Of a stretch of DNA of 61,736 nucleotides, positions 1-61,736 are shown in pieces. Location: positions 1 through 61,736 of IMG/VR virus record IMGVR_UViG_3300031454_000003; one strand, given 5' to 3'. A program made the translations under genes and the position numbers. The notes under the pieces are model-generated. The model was not told the DNA's origin and ran no database searches. It saw only the letters and a program-made list of their open reading frames with translations. Numbering within the stretch: the first letter of the stretch is position 1; the number at the start of each line of letters is the position of its first letter. The DNA comes from a virus.

Positions 1-44
1 CTATGAGGTTGACGCTTCTCAGCTCATCACAGTAATCTTCGTGG
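1..44. repeat. 44-bp terminal direct repeat, identical to 61693..61736 (circular closure or assembly overlap)
   Basis: ctatgaggttgacgcttctcagctcatcacagtaatcttcgtgg is present at both window ends. Confidence 0.95.
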
Positions 45-277: not shown

Positions 278-695
278 GCCCGCCTTGCCCGTTAGGGAAG
301 TAGTCAGTTCGGTTGTTGCCGCCTACGGAACGCTTACCCGCAGACGAAGATGATTGGGAATTATGACCTAACCTCAACGAGGAGGGATTAAGTACTTTCT
401 CGAGAAAGGCTAGTTCCGCACCCAATCTTAAGGAAAGATTGTCACGCTCGTTTTGCAACATCTCATAAGATTCTCGCACCGCCTGTACGAGGTCGTCTAT
501 GGCCTCCTGTTGGGATGCGCCGACCCCGTAAGTGTCAATCTCCTTCGGAAAAATGATGGTAGCGAAAAACTCGCCGTCTTCATAGCATAACGAAAAGGCA
601 ACACCTACGTTATGGCCGTAGGTGTCTAAAGTTCCAATGTTAAAGGTCGAGGAGACTAATGGGTTTGGACCTTCAATTTTGCCGGTCTGAGTCAT
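261..695 (-). CDS. HicB-like (UPF0150-type) protein, antitoxin candidate
   Basis: ATG at 695 lies behind AGGAGGGGG. CYEDGEFFATIIFPKEIDTYGVGASQQEAIDDLVQAVRESYEML resembles the HicB N-terminal fold signature. No recognisable DNA-binding tail. Confidence 0.4.
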   Translation of the reverse strand: MTQTGKIEGPNPLVSSTFNIGTLDTYGHNVGVAFSLCYEDGEFFATIIFPKEIDTYGVGASQQEAIDDLVQAVRESYEMLQNERDNLSLRLGAELAFLEKVLNPSSLRLGHNSQSSSSAGKRSVGGNNRTDYFPNGQGGRAASS

Positions 696-892
696 TATCC
701 CCCTCCTGTCCTGTAAGTTGTTGAGTAAGCTCTTTTGGTAAAGATATTGGAGCGATTCGCTGCTCATAAACAGTTATGAACGTTTGAAGCAGCAAAACGA
801 AGGCCCGGACGTGTGGAACCACCTTGACCAATACCCCGGCTTTCATCTACGTTAAGACGTATCCATAAACCCCTCCAAATGGGCTAAACCCA

Positions 893-3800
893 TCAGCGCC
901 TCCGGGGGCGACGTGACCACTCGAGGGTGCTGCCCGCTGCGTTCGTCGCCATCTTCTCAACTGCGGCAGCGAATCTTTCGGCAGCGTCAAACTGTAACCG
1001 CGCCGCGTTCATCATCAGGCTCGAGGCGCGTTCCATACCGGCAACGGGCGCGGCAAACGAATCTTTAAGCCCGCTGAAGGTGATGTTTAAGCTCAGCGCG
1101 CGCTCTTGTTTACTGCTGAGTGCGAGCGTCCGCGAAGGTCCGAACAGGTCGAGTAGGCCGGTCGTAGCGGCAGCGTAAGCGAGAGCGCCGCTTGTGGCGT
1201 AACTGTAGTCAGGCAAGAACCCGTCAGCGGCAAACGCGCCGATGCTGGGCATAAAGTCTACGGGTGAGATGACCGGCGCTTCACCTGCGTAGCCCGATGA
1301 GCTGGGTGTAGGTGGCGTCGGCAGTTTCGGATACTTGAAGTTTTTAATTACGTCGGCAATACGGCCAAGCGCCCGCTGTAGGGCGGTCTCCTGATCGTTA
1401 ATAATGCCGATGTACTTGTCCATCCCGGTTTTGTAGGCGTCGCCCTGATCGCTAAACGTCGAGTTCGTTTTACCGATTACGTCGTCTCTCATTTTGCCGA
1501 GTGCGCCGGTGACGGTTGACACCGCCGAGCTGAGCGCCGACTTTTCAACGCCGGACGCTTTATCAATGATGCTGCGGAACTCGCGGCTGCCGTTGTCGAA
1601 CGTGCTGCCGATACCCCGGTAGCCTGAATCGGTGTCGCTAGAGATGGACTTTTGCCACGCGCCGAGCGCGCCGGACAAGAGCTTTTCGGCTCCTGAAATG
1701 GCACTCTGTTCAGATTTGGCGCTGCTGTCTATTTGGTTCTGATAGTCGCGGCTATCAGCCTCGTGCTCACGTTTGAGGGCGTCGTACTCACGTTGTAGGG
1801 TGGCTTTTTCGTCGCCTTTTGCCGACGCGATGAGCCGCTCAAATACGGCGGACTCTGCCGAAAACTTACTTTGCTCGGCTTCATAGGCCCGCTGAATTTG
1901 CGAGACCATCTCGCTCGAGCCTTTGCTAAGTCCGCCCGTCACGTCGCCGTAAAGCGAACCGATAGCCGACGTGATGTTTCCGCTTATGTTGCCGACGGTA
2001 CCTGAGACCGCGCTGCCTTGGGTCGTGAAGGCTTGGCTTTCGTCGTTTCCTGACGCGCTTATCGCCGCCGTGAAGATTCGTGAAGCTACCCCAACGGTGT
2101 TGCCCATGCCCGCGTAATCACCGTTTAGGACGCCGGTGATTTTTGAGACCGTATCGGTAATGCTGCTGCCGATAGCGGTGCCGCTAGTGTTGACCGAGTT
2201 GGTTACGTCGCCGGTCATGCTGTCAAACGTGGCCGCGATCTCCCCGTCTACCTGCCGGGTTGCGTCGGCGATACTCATACCGCCGCGCACAAGTTCTTCA
2301 ATACGGCTGTTTCGGGTCGAGAGTTCCAGGGCGACCTTCTCGCGCCCCGCCGCAATCTCGGCGGCAGTCATGTTCGCGCCGCTGATGAACTCGTCTTGCA
2401 GGCGCTTGGCGGATTCTCTGAGTGCGGGTGTTAGGTCGCTACGCTCGAGTAGACCTTGGAGGGTATTCTCCCGGTCCGTAAGGGCTTGCGCTTCGGTTTC
2501 CGCCCCGGCGTCTATACCTGCGGCGGTCTCCCTGCTGCCTTCTTCGTATGCGCCTGACTGCCCATCGTAAGTTGCTTGAATCAAGCCGATGATTTCATCG
2601 GCGGCGGGACCGAGCAGCGCACGGAGTTGAGCGTAGATATTGTCGAGAGCCGCTAATTGGCTCTGGTTACCTGTTTCAGCCGCTTGTCCGGCCTCTGCGC
2701 CGCCCTCTGTGTGTGCCGCCTGCTGGCCCTCGTACGTCTCATTGATAAGGGCGATAATCTCGTCAGCAGCTGGTCCCAGAATCGCGCGCAACTGTGACTC
2801 AATGTTGGACAGCGCCGCCATATGCTCAGCGTTCCCCTGTTCGGCCCCCTCTGAAACGCGAGCGCCGCCCTCGGTATGCGCGCCGTAGACCTCGTTATAC
2901 ATATCCTCGAGGTACCCGGGCAGCTCAATTCCATACTCGCGGGCGGTGGCGATAAAGTCGAGCAGAGCAAGCCGCTGTTCTTCGGTCATGTCGCCGAGAA
3001 CTTCTTGGTTCCCCTCGATGACGGCTTTCCAGTATTCTCTTTCGGACAAGCCTAGTTCTTCAGCCTGCGTTTGGGACTCGAGCAGAATAGCAGCTGAGGT
3101 GTTCGCGTAGTTTTCTTCCAATGCGTCACGTCCGGGCGCAACGATACTTTCTGCGTACGCTTCAGCTTCCTCACGGCTGATGCCGGGGTTAGCAAGAATG
3201 TACGCCCGGATGATGTCTTCCTTGTCTGTTTCTAAATCAGCCATGTCGTCCATAAACGATTGATGGGCGTCTAGAATTTTTGCGTTCGTCTCGAGTATGA
3301 GTATTTCAATATCAGACGCGCCCTGTGCTTTGGCAAGCCGGATACGTGAGTCTAGTAGGCTGTTCTCCCATTCGTCGGTAGCGTCGTTAAAGCTGTCTAT
3401 CTGATCTTGCAGCGCGGCTTCCATGCTTTCGCGCATTTCAGAACCGGCATTGTCCCAGTCGTTGCCGATGTCCTCGGCGTAACCGTCAATGGCGTCGCCA
3501 ATAATTACCGAGCCGTTGGCTACCGACCCGGCAACACCTGAGTTACCGGACTCGAGTTCAGCGATAAAGTCTTCGGTACTTTGCCCTGCTGCGAGCGCCG
3601 TATCAATACCGCCCTGAACGATGGCGTCGGCATTTAACTCGCCACCTTCTCGAATGGCGGTCTCTTCGGCGTCGAAGCCATCGTTGATTAGAGCGATGTC
3701 ATCAGGGTCGGTAATACCCTGTAGCGCCTCCCGCCTGCGTAGCGCAACGTCGGCTAAATCGTCGTTTACCTGCCGCTGGTTTTCAATGAGGTCAAGCTGG

Positions 3801-6800
3801 GTGTTGATGATGTTAAAGCTAAGCTCATCGAGCGCACCGGTCGCAAGGTCATTTTCGGCAAGTTGACGCATGTTGTCTATAGACTGGTCGATGGCACTGT
3901 CAAGTGCGTCCATCGAGCCCGTCATAGCGTCGGTAAACTGCTGCATCTCGCGCTTTGATTCGCTTACGAAGTCGATAAAGGCGTTTAACAGACCTCCCAG
4001 CGCCGCGATAGCCGCCCCGATATAGTCGCCGCTGGCAGCCTTTAGTGCGACCTGCGCGATGTCATCGATTGCTTTGACGCCCGCGTAGGCGGCGGGGCTA
4101 AGGTCGTCTCGGAAGCCTTCAGCTAGAGCGTCGATACCCGCGCCGAGAACAGCGATGCCTTCAGACGGCGTGACGACGCCATCTGAGAGCGCCTTAGACA
4201 TTCCCTTACTTGCATCCGAGAGGGCTTGCAGACCCCCTCTTGCCTGATCGGAAAGTCCAGGTATGTCGGCAAGCGCCCGGTCTGCCGCTGCACCGATCTC
4301 GTCAAAAGTAGAGGCAACATCACGCGCCAAAGCTAAAGCACGAAGGTCTTCTTGGGTCTGCCGCGCTTGCTCGCTGAGTCTGCCTGTCCCCTCTGCCGCC
4401 GTGTCGAGCGAGCTAATGAGGTCGGCTATGTCCTCGGTGGCGATACCTGAAGCGTCACCTAGTGCTTGCTGGGCGTCGCGGGTAGTTTTGAGGTTTTCGG
4501 CGTAGCGTTCGGCAGCTTCTTTTGCACGTTCTACCGCTTCAGCCTGCGCCTGAGTCTTGTCCTCAGACTCTTGCAGCGCCGTGACCCAGCCCTGTAGCCC
4601 GACCGTCGCCGGGTCGATACCTGCACGGTAGAGAGTCTCGAGTGCGCCTTGATATATCCCGGTCTTGTCGGCGTTGAACTTCGCCGCGTCGCCTGTGATA
4701 GTGAAGGCGTTCTCTGCCTCCTGTAGGGCGTTGCGTACCGTCCCCATCACATCGGCAAGAGTGTTGGTCTGTGAGATGGTCAGGGTAGAGCTAGAGGTGT
4801 ACCCGTCCTGTGTTTCTTTCAGGACACGCCACGAGTCGGAAGCCTCAGCCGCCGCTCTAGCTGCCTCGGCTTGTGCCGCTGCTAGCGTGTTGGTTTGGTC
4901 TGTAGCGATAGCCAGGCCGAGTTGCTCGAGCACGGTGGTCTGCTGATGAAAGACGGTAAGCCCATCCGCAATGGTTTTATTTAGGCCGCGCTGTGCGGCT
5001 TCTTGAGCAAACGCGGCGTCGGTGTTTGCTCTTATCGCAGCTTCGGAGGCGTCTTGGGCGTCAGCGTAAAGGTTGACGTTCTGCGCTGCGGTGCTCCATC
5101 CGAGCTGTTCGATGAGCACGCGCTGCTGGGCGAATATGGTGCTGACCGCTTGGATACTCTTATTCGCTTCGCGCTGCGCGTTGTCGTACTCGGTAACACC
5201 GTCTCTGAAGTTTGCGGCTGCGGTTGTTGCTTCCGTAAGTCGAGCCTGAACCGCCGCGATGTCTTCGTCAAACTTCTGTAAGTCTGCGGCGTCATAATCG
5301 CCAGAGGCCAGCGTATCGGCTTTTTGCTGCTTGAGTTCGGCAAGTTTGGCAGTCAGGGCATTTATCGCGGTCGTAGAGCTTATCTCCCCGCGCTGGAACG
5401 AGCTGACGATATTGTTCGCCATGTCCGCAGCGGTGCGGCCTATCTCTTCAATGTTCGCCGCAAGCCTATCGCCCGCTTCGATCTGTGAATCTATCGCCCG
5501 GATAGCTTGCAGGGCTTCAGCCTGCGCCGCCGACCCGATAGGTGAGTTTTCGTAAATCTCTACCAGCCGCTGACGCTCTTCGCGCAACGCAAGTAGTGAA
5601 CCCTCTTGCGCTTGGTTTGCTTCGCCCGCTTCGCCTTGGGTCTTGATGTATTGCTCTACGCCCGCGATAAGGACGTTGACCTCTTGGGCAACGTGCGGAT
5701 AGGCGGTGCGAAGGGCCTTAAGTTGGTTTAGAAATTGCTGGGCCTGTTCGGTGCTGAGGTTTTGCAGGCCGTTGTATTTTTCTTGCGCCCCGGTAAGACC
5801 GCCGAGTTTGTTCGCCGCCTCAACAGTTGCCTGACCGCCTCGGTTAAGCACTTCTATTTGGGCTTCGCCCTGAGAAATGAGGGGGCGCAAGGCCGCCTCG
5901 AGCTGCGGATAGACCTGCAACGCTGCGTTCAGACGGTCAACGTAAGCTTGCACCTCAGCTTTGTTTGTGCTGTACGCCTTACCCATATTGTCTATAGCGC
6001 GCTGCTGTTCTTGTTCGGCGGTTCCTAGTTTAGCTGCCGAGTCCGCCGCTTCATTTTGTGAGGTTGCAAGGCCGTCTATGCTGTCTGCTGCTGCGTCCGT
6101 AGCGGGCGGTAGACCGAAAACACCGCGTACGAAATTATCTACAGACACTAGGTTCTTTTGGTTCTCCGCTTGAAACGCCTGCATACCCTTAGTGTCAAGA
6201 GCGTCGTCTATAGCCGTGCTGATGGTGGCGTAGGTATCTTTAATGCTCTGACCTACACCGACGATTGCGCCACCGATACCGGCGATACCAGCGCCGAACT
6301 GTGCGAAGGATATACCGATCTGGCGCGCCAGTGTTTCGCTACGCCCCATAATCGGCTCGAGGCCAGCCAGACCCCGCGAAAAGTCAAGGACGTTGTTCAG
6401 TAGTCCCTGAAAAACCGGCAAGACTGCCAGCGCCATTTTGTCGCCTAAGAAACCGAACGCGCTACCGATGAGCGTAACCGTGCTGTTGAGGCTTTTTAAC
6501 TTAGCGTCAACCTCAGTTTGAAGGGCGTTTAAGTCTTCAGCTTCAGCTCGAGCCAACTTAAGTGATAAACCAAAGTCTTCATACCCGCCGACTAAGGCGT
6601 CGAGAACTCGGATGTTTTCAGAACCGCTAAAGCCCAAGTCGGCGTAAATGCCGACAAGGGACTCGCCGGAATCACTTGCTTCTTTAATGCCGCCAGTGAG
6701 CTGATAAAACGCTTCGACCGGGTTTTCCTTAAACAGCTTGGCAAACTCTTCCGAAGTCAAACCCGTGATCGCTGCAAACTTATCTAACGCCGCGCCGCCT

Positions 6801-9800
6801 TCGTCTACAGCCTTAACGATGATGTTAAAGATGCGTACGGTGCTTTCGCCGCCAGCTTCGGCGCTGAACCCTAGACTCGCGAGCGCGCCCGCCATACCTA
6901 AAATCTCAGTCTGAGACGCGCCCGCCGAGGTTGAGAGTCCGGTGAGGCGTGAGGCAAGCGCCAAGATAGGTGCTTCAGTAGTACGCAGGTTGTTGCCGAG
7001 TTCGGTGATAACGTTACCGACCAGATTAGCCGAGTCGGTGATAGACACGTTTGCGTCTTTTGTCAATCCGACGAACGTAGCAAGTTGCTGAGCACCCTCT
7101 TCTCCGACAATATCTGTGGCGATGCCCAGCTTGTTCATGATGTCAACAAAACCCGCGATGTTGTCAGCGCCTTTAATGCCGAGCTGACCCGCAACCGCCG
7201 CGTACTCCTGAAGGGCTAAGACGCCTGTGCCCGTTTCAGTCGAAATGCCTTGTAACTTCGTTTGCAACAAACCGAGTTGGTCTTGAGTCAGGCCGGTAGT
7301 CTTACCGATAGCAACCAGGCCGTCATTTAGGTCGCCAGCCCGGTCGAAAAGTGCTTTGGTCGCTACCGCCGCGCCGATGATCGCGCCGACCACACCGACC
7401 GTCAGGGCGATGTTCAACGCCTTAGCCGACAGCGAAGCTCCGGTCATTCCAGCCGACGCGCTGAACATGGCAACGCCCATCGCTTCACCCGCAGGCCCGA
7501 GGCGGTAAAGGACGTTCTGAAGCTGGTCCGAAACCCCCGCCGTGACACCTGACGCGACCCCAAAGGTGCGTACCCGGCCCTCGGCTTGCGCTAACGACGA
7601 TTCAACCCGAGTGAGACCGGTGGTGTAATTTGCGTAGGCGCGGGTGCTGTTATCCAGACCCGAGCGGCTCTGCTCGAGCGCCACGCCGATGCCGCGCGCC
7701 GAAACACTGAACTGTTCTTGCGAGATGTCGCCACGCTCTAAAGCCAGCTTGAGCTCGTTTAGTGCCGCAACTTGCTGCCGGACGTTCTCAGCCTGAAAAG
7801 CGTCACCGGCCCGCTGCTGGGCTGTGGCTAGACGCGTTGCCGCACTCTCGGTCTGCCCCATCACAGAGGCGAGCGTGCGCTGCTCGTTGGCACTTAGCGT
7901 CGTGCTATTAGCGAACTCGCGTAAACGCCCCTGAAGCGCCTCAATAGCGCGGGCGGTCTGGTCAAACGAGGTGACGCCGTTTTTGTTGGCGGTGACGATC
8001 TGCTCTAGGTCGCTGCGGAACGTCTTGAGCGCGTCAACCCGGAACGCTGCCTCGAGCTTGCTCTGCTCGGCGACAAGGCGGGTCGTTGCGCCCTCAAGCT
8101 CGCGCTCTACATTCTGTAGTGCCGTCAGCTCACGGACCGACAGGTTCGCCGCTTGTCCCGAGTCACGCAGTGAGGTGTCGAGTTTATTCAGTTCGCCTTC
8201 AATGCCTGAGAAAGCGGTACCCAGCTCACGCCCGGTGCTCTGCAAGTCCTTGAGTTCGGTGCTGTAAACCCGCACCGGCCCCGCGTCGAAGGCTCTGCTT
8301 GTGCGCTCGGCTGTGGTGCCGACCTCTAGCAGCGCCCGCTCGGATACGTCTAGCAACTTATTGAAGTCAGCAAACTCGCGGCTGTTCTGGTTCAGGGTGC
8401 TGCCGTACTCGCGCAGTCTGCTCTGCGAATCCGACACGGCGCGGGTAAAACCCTCTGCGCCGATCCCGCCTTTGTCGTAAGCCTGCACCGCGTTTTGCAA
8501 CTCACCGACGAATGAACGCAGTGCCGAAGCGTCAAACGCTCGAGCTGCTCGCTCCTGCGCCCCGGCGAAGGTGTCGGCGCTCCGGCCCGCGTCGATCTGT
8601 AAACGTGAGAAGGTATCCAGCTCACGCTCAGCTATCCCCAGCGCGGCGGCGTAGTCCTTGAACTCGGTTTGTATCTGCTGCACAGCACGAGCCGCTTGCT
8701 CGGTGCTGGTGAGGTTGCTCTTTTGCGCTTTTTCAACGTCACGGAGGCGCGCTGTGAACTGCTCGATTTCAGCACCGCGATAAGCCTGCGCCGCGCGCTC
8801 CTGTTCCCGTGTCAACGACTGTGTAGCGCGCTCGGTGGCGTCCATGACCCGGACGAGTTCCTTGTGCTCACTCGAGCCCTCTGAGAGCCCACGAGCATAG
8901 TCCTGTAACTTACCCCTCAAACCCTCGAGACCGCGCCCTAACCCGTCAAACGACCCACTCAGGCGCTCCTGCTCACCCCGGTACTGTGAAACTGCGCCTG
9001 AGTCGTACTTTAAGGCGCGCTGCTGTGAGTCGAGCCGACCGAGTTCGGCGGTCGTATTGCGGAGGGTACCCTCGAGCTGTTTTAGTTCGGTGCCGTAGGT
9101 GCGGATCTGGGCAGCGTCGTTTGCGCGAGAAGCCTTCTCCGCTGCCGTCTGATACCGCTCCTGCTGCGCTGCCGCCTCTTTAAGTAGACGACTGAACTGA
9201 TCGAACTCACGCCCGGTATTCGTGAGCGCGGCCTGTTGTTCTTTTAGTTCGGCGCTGAGTTTTTGTACACGTGTTGAGGCGTTCTCAAAACCGTCGGTGC
9301 CGGACTTTACCGCGGCGTCAATCTGCTTAAACTCGCCCGCGTAACGGCTGAGTTCATCACTGCGAAAACTAGCCGTGAGTTTGTCGGCGTCCGCCTCGAG
9401 TTTTTTGATCGCCGTCCCGGTGTCGCCCATCGCCTTAATGACAGACTTATACTCGGCGCTGTTTTTCTCGAGCGCGCCGGTCTGCTGTGCTAAGGCACTC
9501 TGATAGCTTTTGAGCTGAGAGATGGCCTGCGTTTGTGATGTGACGCCCGCTTTTTGCGCCTGCACGATGTCGAGTAGTCCCCGACCGTAGCGGGTCAGGT
9601 CTTCAGTCTTGTACGACGCGGTGAGGGACTTGTTGAGTGACTCTAGCTTTTTGCCCTCGTCGCCTGCCGCTTTCATATCTTTAGCGATGCCTAAGTATCC
9701 GGCCCCGGCTTTGTCCAGTACCGCAACCTGACCTTTTAGGATGGCCTCAAGCTCCCGGTAGCGTTGCAAGCTGCTCTGTATCTCTGCCGCGCCAGCCTTG

Positions 9801-10045
9801 ACCGCGTTCGCCAGGTTTTGCATCTCGCGCAGGGTCAGCTGCGCTTGTTTGGCGAGCGGGTCTAGGCGAGCGTTCGCTTCTTTGGCAGCGGTAGCGAGAC
9901 CCTGAAGGGCGCGCTCGAGAGTATCGGTAGATTCCTTTTTAAAGGTTTTCTCTACGGCCTGCTCGACCTCTTTTAGTGCTGTGAGGACTTTGCTGTTATC
10001 GAGTACGATTCCTACGGTTAAGGAAGCTAGCGGAATTTCTGCCAT
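893..10045 (-). CDS. tail tape measure protein, 3050 aa
   Basis: Giant ORF between the tail-tube genes and tail-tip genes. N-terminal third is made of coiled-coil repeats, with central Gly/Ala-rich hydrophobic stretches. SD GGAGGGG lies upstream. Confidence 0.9.
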   Translation of the reverse strand: MAEIPLASLTVGIVLDNSKVLTALKEVEQAVEKTFKKESTDTLERALQGLATAAKEANARLDPLAKQAQLTLREMQNLANAVKAGAAEIQSSLQRYRELEAILKGQVAVLDKAGAGYLGIAKDMKAAGDEGKKLESLNKSLTASYKTEDLTRYGRGLLDIVQAQKAGVTSQTQAISQLKSYQSALAQQTGALEKNSAEYKSVIKAMGDTGTAIKKLEADADKLTASFRSDELSRYAGEFKQIDAAVKSGTDGFENASTRVQKLSAELKEQQAALTNTGREFDQFSRLLKEAAAQQERYQTAAEKASRANDAAQIRTYGTELKQLEGTLRNTTAELGRLDSQQRALKYDSGAVSQYRGEQERLSGSFDGLGRGLEGLRGKLQDYARGLSEGSSEHKELVRVMDATERATQSLTREQERAAQAYRGAEIEQFTARLRDVEKAQKSNLTSTEQAARAVQQIQTEFKDYAAALGIAERELDTFSRLQIDAGRSADTFAGAQERAARAFDASALRSFVGELQNAVQAYDKGGIGAEGFTRAVSDSQSRLREYGSTLNQNSREFADFNKLLDVSERALLEVGTTAERTSRAFDAGPVRVYSTELKDLQSTGRELGTAFSGIEGELNKLDTSLRDSGQAANLSVRELTALQNVERELEGATTRLVAEQSKLEAAFRVDALKTFRSDLEQIVTANKNGVTSFDQTARAIEALQGRLREFANSTTLSANEQRTLASVMGQTESAATRLATAQQRAGDAFQAENVRQQVAALNELKLALERGDISQEQFSVSARGIGVALEQSRSGLDNSTRAYANYTTGLTRVESSLAQAEGRVRTFGVASGVTAGVSDQLQNVLYRLGPAGEAMGVAMFSASAGMTGASLSAKALNIALTVGVVGAIIGAAVATKALFDRAGDLNDGLVAIGKTTGLTQDQLGLLQTKLQGISTETGTGVLALQEYAAVAGQLGIKGADNIAGFVDIMNKLGIATDIVGEEGAQQLATFVGLTKDANVSITDSANLVGNVITELGNNLRTTEAPILALASRLTGLSTSAGASQTEILGMAGALASLGFSAEAGGESTVRIFNIIVKAVDEGGAALDKFAAITGLTSEEFAKLFKENPVEAFYQLTGGIKEASDSGESLVGIYADLGFSGSENIRVLDALVGGYEDFGLSLKLARAEAEDLNALQTEVDAKLKSLNSTVTLIGSAFGFLGDKMALAVLPVFQGLLNNVLDFSRGLAGLEPIMGRSETLARQIGISFAQFGAGIAGIGGAIVGVGQSIKDTYATISTAIDDALDTKGMQAFQAENQKNLVSVDNFVRGVFGLPPATDAAADSIDGLATSQNEAADSAAKLGTAEQEQQRAIDNMGKAYSTNKAEVQAYVDRLNAALQVYPQLEAALRPLISQGEAQIEVLNRGGQATVEAANKLGGLTGAQEKYNGLQNLSTEQAQQFLNQLKALRTAYPHVAQEVNVLIAGVEQYIKTQGEAGEANQAQEGSLLALREERQRLVEIYENSPIGSAAQAEALQAIRAIDSQIEAGDRLAANIEEIGRTAADMANNIVSSFQRGEISSTTAINALTAKLAELKQQKADTLASGDYDAADLQKFDEDIAAVQARLTEATTAAANFRDGVTEYDNAQREANKSIQAVSTIFAQQRVLIEQLGWSTAAQNVNLYADAQDASEAAIRANTDAAFAQEAAQRGLNKTIADGLTVFHQQTTVLEQLGLAIATDQTNTLAAAQAEAARAAAEASDSWRVLKETQDGYTSSSTLTISQTNTLADVMGTVRNALQEAENAFTITGDAAKFNADKTGIYQGALETLYRAGIDPATVGLQGWVTALQESEDKTQAQAEAVERAKEAAERYAENLKTTRDAQQALGDASGIATEDIADLISSLDTAAEGTGRLSEQARQTQEDLRALALARDVASTFDEIGAAADRALADIPGLSDQARGGLQALSDASKGMSKALSDGVVTPSEGIAVLGAGIDALAEGFRDDLSPAAYAGVKAIDDIAQVALKAASGDYIGAAIAALGGLLNAFIDFVSESKREMQQFTDAMTGSMDALDSAIDQSIDNMRQLAENDLATGALDELSFNIINTQLDLIENQRQVNDDLADVALRRREALQGITDPDDIALINDGFDAEETAIREGGELNADAIVQGGIDTALAAGQSTEDFIAELESGNSGVAGSVANGSVIIGDAIDGYAEDIGNDWDNAGSEMRESMEAALQDQIDSFNDATDEWENSLLDSRIRLAKAQGASDIEILILETNAKILDAHQSFMDDMADLETDKEDIIRAYILANPGISREEAEAYAESIVAPGRDALEENYANTSAAILLESQTQAEELGLSEREYWKAVIEGNQEVLGDMTEEQRLALLDFIATAREYGIELPGYLEDMYNEVYGAHTEGGARVSEGAEQGNAEHMAALSNIESQLRAILGPAADEIIALINETYEGQQAAHTEGGAEAGQAAETGNQSQLAALDNIYAQLRALLGPAADEIIGLIQATYDGQSGAYEEGSRETAAGIDAGAETEAQALTDRENTLQGLLERSDLTPALRESAKRLQDEFISGANMTAAEIAAGREKVALELSTRNSRIEELVRGGMSIADATRQVDGEIAATFDSMTGDVTNSVNTSGTAIGSSITDTVSKITGVLNGDYAGMGNTVGVASRIFTAAISASGNDESQAFTTQGSAVSGTVGNISGNITSAIGSLYGDVTGGLSKGSSEMVSQIQRAYEAEQSKFSAESAVFERLIASAKGDEKATLQREYDALKREHEADSRDYQNQIDSSAKSEQSAISGAEKLLSGALGAWQKSISSDTDSGYRGIGSTFDNGSREFRSIIDKASGVEKSALSSAVSTVTGALGKMRDDVIGKTNSTFSDQGDAYKTGMDKYIGIINDQETALQRALGRIADVIKNFKYPKLPTPPTPSSSGYAGEAPVISPVDFMPSIGAFAADGFLPDYSYATSGALAYAAATTGLLDLFGPSRTLALSSKQERALSLNITFSGLKDSFAAPVAGMERASSLMMNAARLQFDAAERFAAAVEKMATNAAGSTLEWSRRPRRR
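2552..2881 (-). repeat. tandem 165-nt (55-aa) duplication inside the tape measure
   Basis: AHTEGGARVSEGAEQGN..LRAILGPAADEIIALINETYEGQ is followed by AHTEGGAEAGQAAETGN..LRALLGPAADEIIGLIQATYDGQ. Confidence 0.8.
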
Positions 10046-26186: not shown

Positions 26187-27101
26187 TTAGTTTAGCCTTC
26201 CTCTCTGTAGATTTAACTCATCGTTCCAGTCCATTCCTGGGATTGCGGGTATGTAGACCTTAACGTTTCTCCCTTGTCTGCTAAAACGTTGCGCTGCGGC
26301 GTAGGCCGCAAGCTGACCTGCAAACTCGGTTGTGCTGTCTTCATCCCCGAAAATGGTGACGTTGCGGATGCTTTCAGGCAGCTCTACAGTCTCGAGGCCG
26401 AATGCTGAGACGCACGCCCACACCGGTAGGTTGAAAAGCTCGGCGGCGGCGGCGGCGGTCTCTATTCCTTCGGCTAATCCAACCTCACTAGCGGCAGTCC
26501 ATAACCGTACTGCCGCCCCCTTAATGGTTGTCGTCGGCGTCATCGTCCTTTTCGGATCGGGTATCACTGCCTTGCGATTGCCCTCCAGAAACGTCCTGTG
26601 TATGGACACGGCCTTACCGCTCACGTTTTGCAGAATGCCGAGCATGGCTGGAAACGTCCTGCCCTCAGCCCGTAAGCCAGGGTGAAAGCGCAAACCGGTA
26701 GGTAAACGGGATAGACCTCTTGCCCGTAGGTACTGGTGAGCCTGGTCGCCATGCTTTACCGGGTGTGAACCTAGCCAGATGCGGTTGAGTGCTTTCGCAG
26801 GATCGCGTTTAGGCTGAAACCTGACTTTTTCGGGTACACCTAAGACGCGCTCGACCTCGCGGGCAGTGCGCTTGAAGTCCCATGAGTTGAGAGACATAAG
26901 CAAATCGAAGCCGTCATGAGGGCCACACGCACGGCAGTAGTAGGTGCCGCGTCCCTCGAGGTCGGTAAACGACGCCCGGTCGTTGCCACCGCACAGCACA
27001 CACGGGCGGTTAGGTTTAGATAACGCCGACTCGGGTACGCCTAGCTGAGTAAGTACGTGCAGCCAATGCCCGCTCGCGGCTTCTTTCGCGGAAGTTGTCA
27101 A
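26187..27101 (-). CDS. DNA primase (zinc-ribbon plus Toprim type)
   Basis: CVLCGGNDRASFTDLEGRGTYYCRACGPHDGFDLL, later Toprim-like GLAEGIETAAA ... IFGDED. Confidence 0.7.
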   Translation of the reverse strand: MTTSAKEAASGHWLHVLTQLGVPESALSKPNRPCVLCGGNDRASFTDLEGRGTYYCRACGPHDGFDLLMSLNSWDFKRTAREVERVLGVPEKVRFQPKRDPAKALNRIWLGSHPVKHGDQAHQYLRARGLSRLPTGLRFHPGLRAEGRTFPAMLGILQNVSGKAVSIHRTFLEGNRKAVIPDPKRTMTPTTTIKGAAVRLWTAASEVGLAEGIETAAAAAELFNLPVWACVSAFGLETVELPESIRNVTIFGDEDSTTEFAGQLAAYAAAQRFSRQGRNVKVYIPAIPGMDWNDELNLQRGRLN

Positions 27102-27769
27102 AACAACCGCCCCGCAAACTCTAAGGGAGTTTTTGCACTCTTACTTTGGTTGCACCAAGCGCATGAACACACAATATTTTCAGGGCCGTTAGAGCCGCCT
27201 CGAGCAAGGGCTATCACATGATCAACGTGGAACTTACCTTTGCCGGACTTTTTTAGTTTGACGCCACACCACCAGCAACGGCCTTTTTGAGCCTCACACT
27301 GCTTTGCAACATCTAACGCAGTGTGAACACCGCCAACACTTTTAACCCGAGAGCGCCGCTTGCGAGTATTCGCTAAGCCCTCTTCGGGTCGGTCACGCCA
27401 GTACTGGCGGTTTTTTTCACGAAGAGCCTCACGGTTTGCCTCACGGTACTTCGCTTTATGCTCAAGGTTTCTGACAGGGTTTGCTTGCACCCAGCGTACA
27501 AGCCTTTCGGCAGCTGCTTCAGGGTTTTCAAGCTGATACTTTGAGCGTGTTGCCCGAGCCCGCTCAAGGTTGTTTTGATACCAAGCGCGCTCTTTTGCTT
27601 TGCACTTTTCGAGGTTATTCTCTCTGTAAGCTTTATCCGAAAGGGACTTGCAGGTTTTACAAGAAGGGCTCAGGCCATCTCGCTTTTGACTGTTTCGAAC
27701 GAAAAACTCAGGAGTAGGGGGTTTAGAAACGCCGCACTTAGTGCAGACCTTTTCAGGTACAATACCCAT
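27098..27769 (-). CDS. HNH endonuclease, family A
   Basis: QKGRCWWCGVKLKKSGKGKFHVDHVIALARGGSNGPENIVCSCAWCNQSKSAKTPLEFAGRLF. Confidence 0.85.
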   Translation of the reverse strand: MGIVPEKVCTKCGVSKPPTPEFFVRNSQKRDGLSPSCKTCKSLSDKAYRENNLEKCKAKERAWYQNNLERARATRSKYQLENPEAAAERLVRWVQANPVRNLEHKAKYREANREALREKNRQYWRDRPEEGLANTRKRRSRVKSVGGVHTALDVAKQCEAQKGRCWWCGVKLKKSGKGKFHVDHVIALARGGSNGPENIVCSCAWCNQSKSAKTPLEFAGRLF

Positions 27770-27791
27770 TGCAGACCTCCGCGTCTGTCGT

Positions 27792-27836
27792 GCCAGGGCG
27801 GTGTTGAAGCACCGAGTCCCTGGCTTTATTGTATCA
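27792..27836 (-). promoter_or_regulatory. private HNH promoter (TGaTACAAT) plus nested leader hairpin, abutting the helicase stop
   Basis: GCCAGGG ACTC GGTG cttcaa CACC G CCCTGGC, followed by GGAGGT and ATG. Confidence 0.55.
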
Positions 27837-29333
27837 CCTCCAGGACGCATTTTGTACCTCCTTACGCTTCGCATACGCAATGTTTCGGCTTCTGATAAAA
27901 CCGTTGACTTCCTTGCTAGGTGGCGTCGGGTGAGCTAGGCGCACGTCAGCCGTAGCCGGTTCCTTAAACTTTTGTAGATACATATTTAATATCCAGCCGT
28001 CAGACTTACTTTTTGTAGCAGCGTAGTAAAGCAAACCGCCATAGAAGGCGCGCTTATCGGTGAAGGCGTAAAGGTTGCGACGTGTTTTCGGTTTGACCTC
28101 GGTAAGGTCGGCGTCAATACGTGCGCCCGGTTCGTACTCAGCTTCTTTCTTCTGCGGGATAGCGCCGCAATTCGGGCACTTCGCAGCAGGCTTGTAAACG
28201 TGAGCGCACTCTCTACACGTCACGTCTTTGGGCTTTTTCTTAAGCTCTTCTTCTCTTTCGGTTTGCGGGTCAACGTCGCCGGATATGTCCCAAGTCACAG
28301 GGTCACTTACAAAATCGCCATGCCTGTGAATGTTAAAGCCAAGATCAAGCACAACGCAGTCCGTTTTGCCCCGGTAGGAGCGAAGGCCGCGCCCGACGAT
28401 CTGTATCCAGGTCGTCAAGCTTTTCGTTTCCCGCTCTACTATCACGCATGAGATGGCGGGACAGTCGAAACCGCGCCCGAGCACTCCGTAGTTGCAAATT
28501 ATCTTCAGATCGCCACATGCAATAGCCTCAAAAGCTGCTTGACGTTCGTGCTGAGGGGTATTGCTATCTATATGGAAAGACGGTATGCCCGCCTCGTTGA
28601 ACAGTTCGGCGTTACGTCTGCTTGTTGCCACGTTAGGGCCGAACAGCACCGTAGGGCGTCCCTCTGCGAAAGTCTGCCAGTGTTTGACGACACCGCCGAT
28701 CAGGGTTAGCTTCTCAAACGCCGCTGCCTGTGACGCTTCGGTGTAGTCGCCGCCGGAGAGTTTTAGCAGTTCGCTGTCTGACTCTTTGACGCTGAAGTAA
28801 CGCGGGCGTACTAGGTAGCCTTCGCGTATCAGGGACTCGCAAGAAGGGCCGCGTGCCATAGCTGTGTAAACGTCTGTAGGCTTTGGCGTAGCGGTCAAGC
28901 CGACTTCGTAAGCGTTAGGCCAACGCGCCCGGATAGCTGCCCACATGCCGGTATCCTTTGAAGCTTCGTGCGCTTCGTCGGTGATGATCAAATCGGGCTC
29001 GAGCCAGTCCAGGTAAGCAAGACGGCTGTAAACGGTGTGTACTGAAGCAACCTGTACCGGCGCGTCCGTGCGGTAGGTGTTGCCCGCCATGAGTACCGCT
29101 GCGTCGATGCCTAGAGCCGTGTAGGAGTCTAAAGCCTGCTTGACTAGGGTGCGGCCTGAGACGATGAATAAAACCCGTTTGCCTTTACGGACGGCACTCT
29201 CGACGATGTGCGCGCTAGTTCGAGTCTTGCCTGAACCTGTTGCGCTCTGCATGATGACTTTGCGGTGACTTTGTGACAGCAGCCGTCTTGTCTGGTCGAT
29301 CAGTACCTGCTGATACGGCCTCAGAGAAATCAT
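27834..29333 (-). CDS. SF2 (DEAH-type) helicase with a C-terminal zinc ribbon
   Basis: MQSATGSGKT (Walker A), ITDEAHEAS (DEAH box), CRECAHVYKPAAKCPNCG. Confidence 0.85.
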   Translation of the reverse strand: MISLRPYQQVLIDQTRRLLSQSHRKVIMQSATGSGKTRTSAHIVESAVRKGKRVLFIVSGRTLVKQALDSYTALGIDAAVLMAGNTYRTDAPVQVASVHTVYSRLAYLDWLEPDLIITDEAHEASKDTGMWAAIRARWPNAYEVGLTATPKPTDVYTAMARGPSCESLIREGYLVRPRYFSVKESDSELLKLSGGDYTEASQAAAFEKLTLIGGVVKHWQTFAEGRPTVLFGPNVATSRRNAELFNEAGIPSFHIDSNTPQHERQAAFEAIACGDLKIICNYGVLGRGFDCPAISCVIVERETKSLTTWIQIVGRGLRSYRGKTDCVVLDLGFNIHRHGDFVSDPVTWDISGDVDPQTEREEELKKKPKDVTCRECAHVYKPAAKCPNCGAIPQKKEAEYEPGARIDADLTEVKPKTRRNLYAFTDKRAFYGGLLYYAATKSKSDGWILNMYLQKFKEPATADVRLAHPTPPSKEVNGFIRSRNIAYAKRKEVQNASWR

Positions 29334-33802: not shown

Positions 33803-34060
33803 TCAGTTCCATGATCCGCCGCCTTTTACGCCTTCCAGCTCCTCATCCGAACTCAACCTCACCCATCCCCCGGTCTGAAGGCTATGCTGTAGCGCCTGGT
33901 ATGCCGCCTCAGATTCGCTCAGCCGCTCGCTAAGCGTCGTCGCCCGGTCCTGGTACCGCTCAGCCCGCTCACGCCACACCTGCGCCTGTGTATAGGCCAC
34001 AGCGCCGACGATGTTAGTGGCGAGTAGGGCGGCGAAAAGTAGGATGATGAGTAAGGTCAC
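33803..34060 (-). CDS. small membrane protein
   Basis: N-terminal TM segment LLIILLFAALLATNIVGAVAY. GTGA-coupled. Confidence 0.5.
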   Translation of the reverse strand: MTLLIILLFAALLATNIVGAVAYTQAQVWRERAERYQDRATTLSERLSESEAAYQALQHSLQTGGWVRLSSDEELEGVKGGGSWN

Positions 34061-34326
34061 GTTGGCATCTCGAAAACATGTAAGACGAGCTGACCGTTGT
34101 ACATGACTGCTGTACCGAGGTGAGTAGAACTTGGACCGGTTATCTCATGACCGGTCCCGGCGATTCTGAATTTTCGGGTGATTTTCTTAGCGGCGGGGCT
34201 GACCAACGCCCAGAGGCAAAGCTGTTCGTTATCCTGCACACCTACGTGCAAGATTCTCGCGCCCATCGGCATCTCGAGCCGCACTTCATCTTGCGATGGG
34301 AGCAGGTATTTATAAACCTTTTTCAT
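34057..34326 (-). CDS. 89-aa protein, paralogue A of 34723..34992
   Basis: MKKVYKYLLPSQDEVRLEMPMGARILHVGVQDNEQLCLWALV... ATGA-coupled. Confidence 0.65.
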   Translation of the reverse strand: MKKVYKYLLPSQDEVRLEMPMGARILHVGVQDNEQLCLWALVSPAAKKITRKFRIAGTGHEITGPSSTHLGTAVMYNGQLVLHVFEMPT

Positions 34327-34511
34327 GGCGCGGCCCAATCAAGAGCCTTTACTGCTGCCGCCTCTTTACCGAGCGCCTTAAGCCGCTTTGCGCCTCCTAC
34401 GAGCACGTTCAGCTGCTTAGCTGCGCTTTGTGCCGTGGTGCTGTGGTGTGGTGCGGCTAGTCGTCTGACGATTGACTCGGCGTTAGCTAGACGTATTTCG
34501 TACGGAGTCAC
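34323..34511 (-). CDS. hypothetical small protein
   Basis: 62-aa ORF, GTGA-coupled. Confidence 0.45.
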   Translation of the reverse strand: MTPYEIRLANAESIVRRLAAPHHSTTAQSAAKQLNVLVGGAKRLKALGKEAAAVKALDWAAP

Positions 34512-34726
34512 GACGTACCCATCTCAGCGTTACGCCGGTACAAAATGCCGAGTACCTTGCCTACATGCTCCGGCCTAATCTCGACATCCGGAAACTCCCC
34601 CGGTTTCGCACTCAGCAGCGCGTCGGCGTCACACTCGGACATGTAGCGTTTGAGTTCCCTGCGGTATTTAGTCGTGCGGTCTAGCACGGCGGTATCGCTG
34701 CGGGATGCGAGTCTAAGACGGGTCAC
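34508..34726 (-). CDS. hypothetical small protein (short form of track ORF 34508..34885)
   Basis: GTG overlaps the TGA of paralogue B. Confidence 0.45.
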   Translation of the reverse strand: MTRLRLASRSDTAVLDRTTKYRRELKRYMSECDADALLSAKPGEFPDVEIRPEHVGKVLGILYRRNAEMGTS

Positions 34727-34992
34727 ATCGGCACCTCGAAAACGTGCAGGACGAAAGTCCCGTTGTGCATAAGCGCGGTACCGAGGTGGGTTGGGCTCGC
34801 CCCGGCCACCTCGTGGCCTGTCCCGGCGATTCTGAAACTTCGCGTTTTTGTCTCGCCTTTGGGGTTCACGAGCGCCCAGAGACAAAGCTGCTCGTTATCC
34901 TGCACACCTACGTGCAAGACTCTCGCGCCTATAGGCATCTCGAGTTTTACTTCGTCTTGCACTGGTAGAAGGTATTTGTGAACGACTCTCAC
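34723..34992 (-). CDS. 89-aa protein, paralogue B of 34057..34326
   Basis: (M)RVVHKYLLPVQDEVKLEMPIGARVLHVGVQDNEQLCLWALV... GTGA-coupled. Confidence 0.65.
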   Translation of the reverse strand: MRVVHKYLLPVQDEVKLEMPIGARVLHVGVQDNEQLCLWALVNPKGETKTRSFRIAGTGHEVAGASPTHLGTALMHNGTFVLHVFEVPM

Positions 34993-35147
34993 GTCGTCGC
35001 CTCGAGCAGCAGCGCATACCGCGTCTTGACACTTGCCCAAGCGCCATGTTTTGAGTTTGCTAAACCGGTATAGCCCCAACCTCTGAAATAAACGTGCCAG
35101 CGGTAAAGCTGACCGTCGGGACCATCAGGGTGAATAACGACGCGCAT
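34989..35147 (-). CDS. small ORF (52 aa), not on the track
   Basis: TGATG and GTGA overlaps link it into the chain. Confidence 0.35.
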   Translation of the reverse strand: MRVVIHPDGPDGQLYRWHVYFRGWGYTGLANSKHGAWASVKTRYALLLEATT

Positions 35148-59333: not shown

Positions 59334-60782
59334 CTAAGAACGATAGTAGGAACGCACAAGCTTATTTTTGCCGGAGAACTCGGCTTCAAACGCGCTAGCT
59401 GATAGGTCGGTAACGGTGGTATCGCCCTCTTGAGGTGTCCAAGTCCAGCGGAGGCCCGCATTCTCAAGCTCTTTCGTGCCTCTTGGCCCGTCCAGCAGCT
59501 TCACGATTGAAGGGTTAGAACCTATACCGTCCCTCACCAGCTGCCCTGGTTGCGCCTCGGGAACGATGGCGCGGGTTGTGCTATCGAGCGCGTCGATGTC
59601 AAGGCGCAAGAGATAAAAGGCGTGCAATTCGGCTATCCCCGTAGCGCCGCAGCTAAAGCGGAACCACTCCCAGCGGGTGAACGTCCCGGCGTGCGGTGGC
59701 AAGATGATGTCGAGTTCCTGCACCTCGCCTTGAGTGTTGGGCAGCGCCACGTCGTACAGCACGCCACACCATGCGCGAAAGCGGACGGCCTCAACCGTCT
59801 CGGCTGTCATGTAGCGCAGACGTACACCGAGCACGGTCGGTTCGGGGTTGTCGAGTCTAAAGCTGCCTGCCGTACCGCTCGCCTTGACCGAGGGCGGCGC
59901 GACGCTTGCGTCCACAGCGTTTGCCGGGTTGCTGAAGCCGGTGACGATATAAGAGGCGTCATACTCAGGCGTGAAGGCGTAGGGCGGTATTTGCTTTGTC
60001 CGGGTGTAGCCGTACTTGGCGTGTAGCTCGGCGTCCGGAATGCTCAGATGAGTGTATGGTTTCGGGACGTACGCGCCCGACCACGGCGCGATGGCGGGCG
60101 GCTCATTAAAGATGTGCCTCACCGCTGTGGTGATGGCAGGGGCTGTTTGCGGTAATCCTTCATAATCACTCGCTACATAAGGAACCTCGAGTACGGCCCG
60201 ATTTGGCTTGAAAAAAACGTAACCTTCAGGGCTGACGCCGGAACCATAGTCGGCGTCGGCGGTAGCTGTCAGCAGTTCGTCCAGCACCTCTCCCAACTGA
60301 CCTATAGCCGTGAACTCCGGCATGGCCGAGCCGGACGCTGGAAAGTCGGACGCCCTCACGTTCAGCGCCACGTGTTTGTTTTTACTGGCAAGGTCGTAAG
60401 CAATGGCGGCGGTGTCGGTATCCTTATACGTCTCACCGTTGCACGCGCTGCCGATGAGTAGAGCGCGGGCGTTGGCCTGGTAGCCCTCGAGCGACCCGCT
60501 CCCTTCAGTCGTGTTGTTAGGGATAACCGCCCCGTAGAAAACGCTGTGCAGCGCCCCGGTGCGGTCACGGATAAAAGCACGCAGCACTTCGCCGCCGCTG
60601 AGTTTCAGCAGATCGGGACGGCCTGAGAACTCAAGCACGTCACAACCCGATAGTGGATCGACGGCGGCAGCGATACCGCCGCTTATCCCTTTGCCCTCCG
60701 CCTCACTGGTGAAGGTCTGGGCGGTCGGTTCGCCTGTAGGTGATAAAACGTTAACGATGTAACCGCTTTTTGATGTTGACAT
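59334..60782 (-). CDS. tail-tip/baseplate protein (called by position)
   Basis: 482-aa ORF, the first structural gene after the tape-measure region. Confidence 0.5.
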   Translation of the reverse strand: MSTSKSGYIVNVLSPTGEPTAQTFTSEAEGKGISGGIAAAVDPLSGCDVLEFSGRPDLLKLSGGEVLRAFIRDRTGALHSVFYGAVIPNNTTEGSGSLEGYQANARALLIGSACNGETYKDTDTAAIAYDLASKNKHVALNVRASDFPASGSAMPEFTAIGQLGEVLDELLTATADADYGSGVSPEGYVFFKPNRAVLEVPYVASDYEGLPQTAPAITTAVRHIFNEPPAIAPWSGAYVPKPYTHLSIPDAELHAKYGYTRTKQIPPYAFTPEYDASYIVTGFSNPANAVDASVAPPSVKASGTAGSFRLDNPEPTVLGVRLRYMTAETVEAVRFRAWCGVLYDVALPNTQGEVQELDIILPPHAGTFTRWEWFRFSCGATGIAELHAFYLLRLDIDALDSTTRAIVPEAQPGQLVRDGIGSNPSIVKLLDGPRGTKELENAGLRWTWTPQEGDTTVTDLSASAFEAEFSGKNKLVRSYYRS

Positions 60783-60796
60783 TCAACCTCCCCCCG

Positions 60797-61405
60797 TTAA
60801 AAAAGCCTCCCTGCAAAATCAAGGGGGCTTCTAGCGTGCTTACTCAAATTGCATGTAGGGCAACTGCACACTAGATTCTCTGGGCCGTTAGAACCGCCTT
60901 TTGAAAGTGCTACAACATGGTCAACGTGGTACTTACCCTTGCCGGACTTCTTGAGCTTGGCTCCACACCACCAGCACATGCCTTTTTGGGCATCAAACTG
61001 CCTAGCCACATCCTCGGCGGTATGTGTGCCTTGAGCGCCGCGCTTAAGTGCCTGCCTTTTTCTTTGATAAGCTGCATCTTTGTCAAGGTTTGCTTTTCTC
61101 CAAGCTGTTTTTCTTCCTGGGTTTTCTTCACACCACCTTGCAGTACGCGCCCTTGCTTCTGCGGCATGGGTGGCGCTATACTCCCTATTTTTTTCTATAA
61201 ACCTTGTGCGATTGGCTGCGTAATGTATTTTCGCTTTGTGTCTATTTTCCGCGCGATTGGCTAGGTAGTGTTCTCTCTGATACTCCTTAACGCAAACTCT
61301 ACAGTGTGATGATAAACCACTTTTAGACCGAGAGTATTTAAGAAATTCCGATGGGGGTTTCTTTTCCTTGCACTTATTACAACATTTCAGCGATAAACTA
61401 TCCAT
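60797..61405 (-). CDS. HNH endonuclease, family A
   Basis: QKGMCWWCGAKLKKSGKGKYHVDHVVALSKGGSNGPENLVCSCPTCNLSKHARSPLDFAGRLF. Confidence 0.85.
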   Translation of the reverse strand: MDSLSLKCCNKCKEKKPPSEFLKYSRSKSGLSSHCRVCVKEYQREHYLANRAENRHKAKIHYAANRTRFIEKNREYSATHAAEARARTARWCEENPGRKTAWRKANLDKDAAYQRKRQALKRGAQGTHTAEDVARQFDAQKGMCWWCGAKLKKSGKGKYHVDHVVALSKGGSNGPENLVCSCPTCNLSKHARSPLDFAGRLF

Positions 61406-61432: not shown

Positions 61433-61487
61433 GCGTCCCTTTCGGCAAACTTCCACGTATGCCGTCTGGGACGCGCTTATTATATCA
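61433..61487 (-). promoter_or_regulatory. private HNH promoter (TGaTATAAT) plus nested leader hairpin
   Basis: TGATATAAT aagc GCGTCCC AGAC GGCA tacgtggaagtt TGCC GAAA GGGACGC. Confidence 0.55.
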
Positions 61488-61490
61488 TCA

Positions 61491-61622
61491 TCAGCGCCGC
61501 CTCGGTCGCCGCGACCACTCGAGGGTGCTAGCCGGTTCAGCGCCGCGCCCCAGACGCTCTACGGTGTCACGCATCATCTCAGCGGTAACGCGGTTGGGGA
61601 CCGGGTTACGAATTCTTGGCAT
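61491..61622 (-). CDS. 43-aa ORF ending in the same 12 residues as the tape measure
   Basis: AAGGAG lies 6 nt before the ATG. MPRIRNPVPNRVTAEMMRDTVERLGRGAEPASTLEWSRRPRRR. Confidence 0.5.
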   Translation of the reverse strand: MPRIRNPVPNRVTAEMMRDTVERLGRGAEPASTLEWSRRPRRR

Positions 61623-61642
61623 GGTGGCTCCTTAAAGGCATG

Positions 61643-61667
61643 AAAAAAGCGCCCGGTGAGGGGCGCT
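61643..61667 (-). terminator. intrinsic terminator after the HicA-like gene, abutting the next SD
   Basis: Sense strand reads AGCGCCC ctcacc GGGCGCT TTTTTT. Confidence 0.65.
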
Positions 61668-61692
61668 GGTATATCAGGTTCTTTCTTTTACT

Positions 61693-61736
61693 CTATGAGG
61701 TTGACGCTTCTCAGCTCATCACAGTAATCTTCGTGG
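61693..61736. repeat. second copy of the 44-bp terminal repeat
   Basis: Identical to 1..44. Confidence 0.95.

Follow-up and report, generated by a model that had tools for sequence, protein, structure and literature searches.

In Escherichia coli K-12, the cryptic prophage e14 is flanked by icd and by icdC, a pseudogene of its C-terminal part (Hill et al. 1989, via PMC13626634). In PMC13626634, the two copies are described as differing by synonymous changes together with two D-to-E substitutions, and recombination between icd and icdC removes e14 and gives a chimeric functional gene. A comparable arrangement was found in the viral DNA of IMG/VR record IMGVR_UViG_3300031454_000003, a stretch of 61,736 nucleotides (nt) referred to here as the window, in whose numbering positions are given. 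An open reading frame (ORF) of 43 amino acids (aa; 61491..61622, minus strand) ends in the same peptide, STLEWSRRPRRR, as the 3050-aa tape measure protein (TMP) encoded at 893..10045 on the same strand. This small ORF is probably a stranded 3′ fragment, about 35 codons long, of a TMP allele other than the resident one, and lies between two accessory inserts. As with icd and icdC, the intact 3′ end of an essential gene stands on one side of an insert and a short displaced C-terminal fragment on the other; the copies are in direct orientation across a compositionally foreign insert, and unoccupied sites hold a single copy. The pair icd/icdC around e14 is thus the closest analogue in outcome. In the same account, e14 integrates by a site-specific recombinase and itself carries the replacement end, whereas the insert described here is in a phage genome, its cargo has no recombinase match and the fragment keeps a Shine-Dalgarno sequence (SD) and an ATG. 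Since no recombinase was found in the 0.9-kb cargo, the likeness to e14 is one of outcome and may not extend to the mechanism.

Morons and hot spots for accessory genes have been described in phages (Juhala et al. 2000; Rousset et al. 2022; cited in PMC10884400 and PMC11364771). As in those morons, genes of foreign composition, here deviating in GC content, separate two genes that are neighbors in relatives, the cargo is followed by a terminator-like hairpin, and a single slot varies among near-identical phages. The slot described here differs from those accounts in being the stop-start overlap of the TMP gene and the next tail gene, and in the duplicated TMP end that is left behind. No promoter was detected for the cargo, and no defence function could be assigned to it.

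The TMP C-terminus reads ...VEKMATNAAGSTLEWSRRPRRR (in a longer stretch, ...AAAVEKMATNAAGSTLEWSRRPRRR) and the small ORF is translated as MPRIRNPVPNRVTAEMMRDTVERLGRGAEPASTLEWSRRPRRR. The last 12 codons are AGC ACC CTC GAG TGG TCA CGT CGC CCC CGG AGG CGC in the TMP gene and AGC ACC CTC GAG TGG TCG CGG CGA CCG AGG CGG CGC in the small ORF. They differ at six nucleotides, all of them synonymous (four third positions and two CGG/AGG first positions), so that over the 12-mer the proportion of synonymous differences (pS) is 0.6 and the nonsynonymous divergence (dN) is 0. When 200,000 sets of six random substitutions were simulated, the peptide was left unchanged in 0.017% of them (P about 2e-4). The sharing of the peptide, with synonymous changes only, had been reported in a preliminary description of this DNA, and both copies are present on the minus strand at the positions given above. 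The AAGGAG ascribed there to the small ORF was located at 61633..61628, 5 nt ahead of the ATG, a spacing which in a survey of start regions was typical of the clear genes of this phage.

The shared sequence is one of only three repeat pairs that self-BLAST detected in the whole genome, and a degenerate 41-nt pattern matched only these two sites in the window (0.00 expected by chance). The two copies flank, in direct orientation, a low-GC cargo of two genes and about 0.9 kb. The left copy (…CCCCGGAGGCGCTGATG; 891..934, minus strand) comprises the last 12 TMP codons, the stop codon and an overlapping ATG; the right copy (…CCGAGGCGGCGCTGATG; 61489..61533, minus strand) is 84% identical to it over 45 nt. 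The identity extends beyond the stop codon, each copy reading ...GGCGCTGATG. That the CGG AGG to AGG CGG swap had destroyed the SD in the right copy was considered and rejected, as GAGG persists 8 nt from the ATG. Judged by these signals, the right copy could have been a working junction.

The origin of the small ORF was addressed with a profile of nine distant giant-TMP C-termini (last ~130 residues), the window and its closest relative (L001) being excluded. With hmmsearch, residues 10-43 of the small ORF aligned to the last 33 positions of this profile of the giant-TMP C-terminal region (E=1e-8, as a single comparison). The family was taken to comprise the window TMP, P0013-P0019 and the TMPs of L001, L003 and L009. 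Residues 1-31, which lack the shared 12-mer, scored 9.6 bits, a value equalled by none of 5,000 shuffles. The loose similarity of the residues preceding the 12-mer, pointed out in the preliminary description, is therefore real homology. When all six frames of the genome were scanned with the profile, the TMP (E=3e-30) and the small ORF (E=2e-5) were the only matches. The small ORF is not the end of a long TMP frame, as it has 43 codons, a TAA lies three codons 5′ of its ATG, and a terminator is found further upstream. These results indicate that the small ORF is a detached fragment of a TMP gene.

The window TMP matched PHROG tape-measure families at E=1e-42 and 2e-40 and had no Pfam match. 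Tape measure proteins account for ~0.15 nm of tail per residue as a rule of thumb, and 3050 aa imply a tail of roughly 450 nm. With the last 499 aa of the TMP as query, a full HMMER scan over 1.84 billion representative proteins gave 10 hits, which were giant TMPs of 3,263-3,854 aa and fragments; the family, of ~3,000-3,850 aa, is sparsely sampled. The consensus of most of its C-termini is ...[LM][ED]RA.N..W....ERETA.INRETAELL......[ST]x[EQ][LMW][AS]R[RKN]P.[KR]R.., and most of the giant TMPs recovered, with identities as low as about 30%, terminate in the basic-tail motif [ST]x[EQ][LMW][AS]R[RKN]P.[KR]R. In two members, P0013 and P0019, another basic tail takes its place, ...KLQRKRR and ...KLQSRRRR respectively. 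The 12-mer peptide is identical in the closest relative, L001. Purifying selection therefore appears to hold STLEWSRRPRRR constant on TMPs, and the conserved C-terminal motif is a candidate tail-tip docking element. The earlier proposal was that the basic tail is under selection and is displayed on two proteins. Its first half agrees with the family-wide motif on TMPs; a deliberate display on a second protein does not follow. The suggested search of relatives for the peptide ending likewise recovered a related motif on most TMPs and no free small ORFs.

Over the last 618 nt, the TMP genes of the window and L001 share a ~94% identical block (nt 211-485), followed by ~90 nt of unrelated sequence and by a final 41 nt that are identical. 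The TMP 3′ end is thus a fine-scale mosaic. These TMP alleles, the sole comparable pair, differ by a replaced segment upstream of an invariant 12-mer, and the small ORF stands in just this relation to the resident TMP; synonymous-only divergence between two such ends is therefore expected and needs no selection on the small ORF. The shared peptide is best read as the outcome of common descent and of selection on TMPs, with no evidence for a second docking-tag protein. The combination of an identical peptide and purely synonymous changes mimics selection on a mini-ORF, yet it can arise from the stranded end of another allele. The swapped segment of ~90 nt occupies 936..1025 (minus strand) in the window and 486..575 in L001, and the sequence upstream of nt 210 diverges too.

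The two repeat copies are neighbors because the genome is closed. Its termini, 1..44 and 61693..61736, are identical over 44 nt, giving a circle of 61,692 bp. The join is real, since an independent contig (L013, ENA sample ERZ27247728) follows window positions 6695..1 at 100% identity and runs on into 61736..61679. The window thus holds an entire phage genome, circular or terminally redundant, in which the two copies that code for the peptide are 1,094 nt apart and not 60 kb. On the minus strand, the TMP gene is followed by cargo gene 1 (144 aa; 695..261), which has an SD of the GGAGG type, by cargo gene 2 (93 aa) and by a hairpin resembling an intrinsic terminator (AGCGCCCCTCACCGGGCGCT, then TTTTTT; 61667..61642). 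Cargo gene 2 is read on the circularised sequence, and across the join in L013, from 277 to 1 and then from 61692 to 61688 (61693..61736 repeating 1..44). Beyond the hairpin stand the AAGGAG, the 43-aa ORF, a gene for an HNH endonuclease (61405..60797), which is a second low-GC insert, and the gene for a 482-aa tail-module protein (60782..59334). GC content is 55.5% in the whole genome, 48.3% in the cargo between the repeats, 47.0% in the HNH segment and 65.9% in the small ORF. The small ORF is thus a high-GC island flanked by two foreign-looking low-GC inserts.

Relatives were located through homologues of the 482-aa protein (46-87% identity); their contigs were fetched and the junctions between the TMP gene and the next tail gene were compared. 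The closest relative is represented by two assemblies, L001, a contig of ENA sample ERZ27247728, and L010, which has an NCBI-style accession in a metagenome collection. In both, the TMP ends ...VERLEKMVDNLGATGAASTLEWSRRPRRR and the TGATG at that point is the start of a 480-aa gene; CGGAGGCGCTGATG combines the SD, the TMP stop and the start of this gene. The insert-free junction of L001 reads …CGGAGGCGCTGATGCCTCACTCGGGTTAC…, and the last 41 nt of the window TMP gene are identical to the TMP ends of L001 and L010. L009 has the same arrangement with an ATGA overlap, its TMP ending ...GTYELARRPERRKRP. At these three empty sites the end of the TMP gene abuts the next gene, and there is a single copy of the sequence and no small ORF. 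The last TMP codons are thus dual-coded, for the conserved basic tail and for the SD and start of the next gene. Insertions leave duplicated TMP-end sequence behind because the last TMP codons carry this SD and start.

Most of the other junctions held inserts of various kinds. L004 has HicA/HicB, supported by Pfam, at 631..1261 on the opposite strand (-). L003 has a 92-aa gene with a weak helix-turn-helix match (2273..2551). An HNH gene 57% identical to that of the window lies at the L002 junction, and L005, L006 and L008 carry further inserts. In L007, a 97-aa ORF (39..332) begins on the TGATG of the TMP gene and is translationally coupled at both ends. At 2060..2100 of L003, left of the cargo, the TMP stop is still joined to the three codons with which the tail gene opens in the insert-free L009 (ATGAGCAAA); right of the cargo, a terminator, GGAGAG and ATG have been rebuilt to give a new GGAGAGCCATGA start. 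In L006 the start of the tail gene shows a similar rebuild of terminator, SD and ATG, with weaker evidence for the hairpin. The comparison of these junctions shows the boundary between the TMP gene and the next tail gene to be an insertion hot spot for accessory DNA, a slot that in relatives gathers toxin-antitoxin-like and regulator-like cargo. The cargo hot spot is hereby defined in a poorly known phage family with TMPs of 3,000-3,850 aa.

Scraps of TMP ends are present at three of these junctions. In L004 the scrap lies directly ahead of the tail gene and ends ...VYDLARGKKRRR, without a start codon. In L005 it is an 18-codon mini-ORF, MLERASMFKLACDKERRR, that ends on TGATG ahead of the tail gene, and in L008 the scrap ahead of the tail gene ends ...DLSCGKKRS. 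All three conserve the core of SD, stop and start, (A/C)GGAG.CGCTGATG, and are not conserved as ORFs. These scraps bear on the possibility that the 43-aa ORF is a leader for translational coupling, kept as an upstream ORF whose termination on TGATG feeds ribosomes to the next gene after the cargo was inserted. In insert-free relatives the TMP gene closes with TGATG or ATGA, on which the next gene starts, its SD lying within the last TMP codons; L005 retains its mini-ORF in just this position, and the cargo ORF of L007 takes over a coupled start. In the window, however, the TGATG past the small ORF opens only ATG ATG ATA TAA. The HNH gene, which starts 86 nt beyond this point, is preceded by a separate GAGGAG, and between it and the 482-aa gene there is a further GGAGG for the latter. 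Coupling may explain why the fragment was initially retained and not what it does now; as an account of its present role it is very unlikely.

The content of the slot varies between contigs that are otherwise the same as the window. Contig k141_128291 of ENA sample ERZ27247728 (L011) agrees with the window at 6,870 of 6,870 nt, beginning at 61666 and descending across the terminator, SD, small ORF, HNH gene and tail genes. Upstream of position 61666, L011 has an unrelated gene of at least 393 aa (L011 3..1184). L013, from the same sample, has the window's cargo and ends 12 nt short of the border and terminator at 61666. The slot thus carries different cargo on contigs of one sample, each 100% identical to the window over the part shared with it, and its fixed right border is formed by the terminator and the TMP-end fragment. 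The base of the hairpin is the right border of the variable cargo, the terminator (61667..61642) lying in the constant part common to L011. A search of the minus strand for sigma-70-like promoters gave none. A Logan contig that is 100% identical to the window (L012, SRR8416043) begins at 61486, directly past the right repeat (…TGATGAT|GATATAA). This start would fit an assembly-graph branch at the repeat, with multiple upstream contexts in the sample.

These backgrounds also help in judging whether the repeats arose in place. Insertion of the cargo could have copied the 3′ end of the resident TMP gene as a long target-site duplication, later divergence being confined to silent sites by selection on both copies or against cargo loss through the repeats. 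In favour of this, the cargo is bordered exactly by the direct repeats, the L003 cargo sits within a shorter junction duplication (GCCATGA), and repeats that have diverged would make the cargo more stable. But the 31 codons 5′ of the 12-mer are unrelated in nucleotides to the resident TMP gene, and the NR.TAE.. segment of the fragment is nearer to the family consensus than that of the resident TMP. In addition, pS is 0.6 within the 12-mer, whereas the cargo variants occur on backgrounds without a single difference in 6.9 kb. So great a divergence disfavours a recent duplication of the resident gene, and we consider an origin in place quite unlikely. The GCCATGA repeats make L003 a second, shorter case of a junction duplication around cargo.

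The probable origin of the fragment from a different TMP allele can be pictured as follows. The stranded piece would be the end of a TMP gene plus its stop codon and overlapping ATG. Recombination between related phages, as an illegitimate join or as one crossover within the 41 nt conserved at the junction, would have placed a complete TMP gene with its cargo on the left side of an older TMP end, which by then lay ahead of the HNH gene or the tail gene. The six synonymous differences would then have arisen while both copies were working TMP ends in separate lineages. At first the fragment may have been kept, as in L005, because the tail gene drew its SD and coupled start from it, until the HNH insert with its own SDs rendered this role redundant. 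For the SD and ATG of the small ORF, one possible source is the right end of the cargo, with the order terminator, SD and ATG seen most clearly in L003; the other is the Met/Leu that is conserved in the TMP motif [ML][ED]RA. MAFFT aligns Met1, Arg3 and Asn6 of the small ORF to this motif. Derivation of the start from the 5′ end of the 482-aa gene, whose relatives begin MP..., is conceivable, the similarity being limited to the first two codons. A crossover within the 17 identical bases AGCACCCTCGAGTGGTC would remove the cargo and leave a functional TMP gene.

Several points weigh against this reading. The exact recombination events are not reconstructable, and the L011 contig lacks the left side of the variant. 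The donor TMP allele, expected to end ...NRVTAEMMRDTVERLGRGAEPASTLEWSRRPRRR, was not found in any collection searched. The first nine residues of the small ORF (MPRIRNPVP) are not clearly TMP-like. The ORF is intact, has a strong and correctly spaced SD typical of the real genes of this phage, and by these signals is probably translated when it is transcribed. Its intactness is uninformative on constraint, since the carriers (the window, L011 and L012) are 100% identical. Homologues of the 43-aa ORF were sought by a word-indexed search of 5.8 billion proteins, which returned the ORF itself only, the index being insensitive at this query size and missing even the resident TMP. The preliminary description had named a second copy that is only a scar as grounds against its proposal; the decayed scraps in relatives and the homology of the fragment match this, although the intact ORF with its good SD may be translated. 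The peptide may be made, but nothing indicates a need for it.

The preliminary description had favoured a working gene whose product bears the docking tag of the TMP and acts as competitor, cofactor or decoy at the tail tip, a chaperone or DNA. The intact ORF with AAGGAG 5 nt from its ATG, and a 12-mer that is identical in protein despite six nucleotide differences, are as such a gene would have them. The motif is conserved on most TMPs of the family and so very likely contacts something. The moron Tab of Pseudomonas phage JBD26, an 83-aa tail assembly blocker, acts through and depends on the C-terminal region of the TMP (PMC10884400), and by analogy it would be the only precedent for a functional mini-protein of this kind. 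Tab is unlike the small ORF in having no sequence relation to TMPs and in being located between terminase genes (PMC10884400). Against a working gene, no relative has a free ORF, relatives with empty sites manage without one, and the other relics are truncated or lack a start. The small ORF with its start signals was not found in diverged relatives, its carriers being limited to contigs 100% identical to the window, such as L011. The synonymous-only pattern is equally expected of two TMP alleles, and a phage that made its TMP docking peptide in free form would be more likely to impair its own tail assembly than to aid it. The lack of homologues in the word-indexed search points the same way, though the search is insensitive for a 43-aa query. 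Given that the free ORF recurs in no relative and that it appears to be a TMP fragment whose pattern fits two alleles, the proposed roles are not sustained, and a working gene seems unlikely.

It is also conceivable that the fragment was co-opted after it was stranded. A free mimic of the TMP C-terminal motif could block the docking site on the tail-tip proteins of co-infecting relatives, in the manner of Tab, or serve as a decoy for a host defence that senses the TMP C-terminus. If so, the fragment would form the constant right edge of the variable cargo slot and move along with it. We hold such a role to be highly improbable.

The nature of the cargo was searched by several methods. Cargo genes 1 and 2 had no significant match in Pfam, PHROG, NCBIfam or PADLOC, and no recombinase was found thereby. 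Self-BLAST detected no inverted repeats at the cargo borders. A suspected likeness of the cargo to HicB/HicA was not borne out, with no Pfam hit at E<0.1 and BLASTP values of E=1.2 against HicA and E=0.058 against HicB of L004; the similarity of cargo gene 1 (144 aa) to this HicB is thus only weak. The AlphaFold2 (AF2) model of the 93-aa cargo protein had a mean confidence (pLDDT) of 58.6, and Foldseek found nothing with E<0.1. The gene of at least 393 aa in L011 had no significant match in Pfam, PADLOC or NCBIfam. Its ...HLVIELKRP... stretch resembles, by eye, what we take to be a PD-(D/E)xK nuclease motif.

A DNA search of the INPHARED phage collection with both flanks gave no match. IMG/VR was scanned with the TMP C-terminus, the 482-aa protein, the degenerate 12-mer DNA pattern and two alignments, and gave no relatives. 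Nothing was found in a GTDB genome scan. JGI metagenomes gave no match to the TMP-end alignment and one to the 482-aa alignment, the locus L010, whose junction is identical to that of L001. A word-indexed protein search with the last 300 aa of the TMP found nothing; the word index is insensitive here, since the full HMMER scan did recover TMP relatives. The initial alignment of 12 sequences proved too heterogeneous to serve in finding loci.

Free-standing HNH homing endonuclease genes are known in phages, where they take part in intronless homing, as with the seg and mob genes of T4. The HNH gene of the window, placed between the TMP-end fragment and the tail gene, resembles these in occupying one precise intergenic site, being present in the window, L011, L012 and L002 and absent from L001, L010 and L009. 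The L002 homologue lies at the same position. Where relatives have no insert, the TGATG or ATGA at the close of the TMP gene supplies the start of the homologue of the 482-aa gene. The product of the HNH gene matches Pfam HNH at E=2e-10 and, in PHROG, endonuclease VII / HNH. It is the neighbor of the TMP-end fragment and not the fragment itself.

The protein encoded at 27098..27880 (minus strand) is an HNH paralogue, 43% identical overall in aa to the HNH protein of 60797..61405; where the catalytic ends are encoded (27168-27313 and 60867-61012), the two genes are 80% identical in nt over 146 nt. The flanks of this second copy showed no duplication. Another pair of paralogous small genes, 34057..34338 and 34723..35079 (minus strand; 93 and 118 aa), lies with a distance of ~660 nt between its members, which are 77% identical in nt over 260 nt and share the protein pattern ...KYLLP.QDEV.LEMP.GAR.LHVGVQDNEQLCLWALV....

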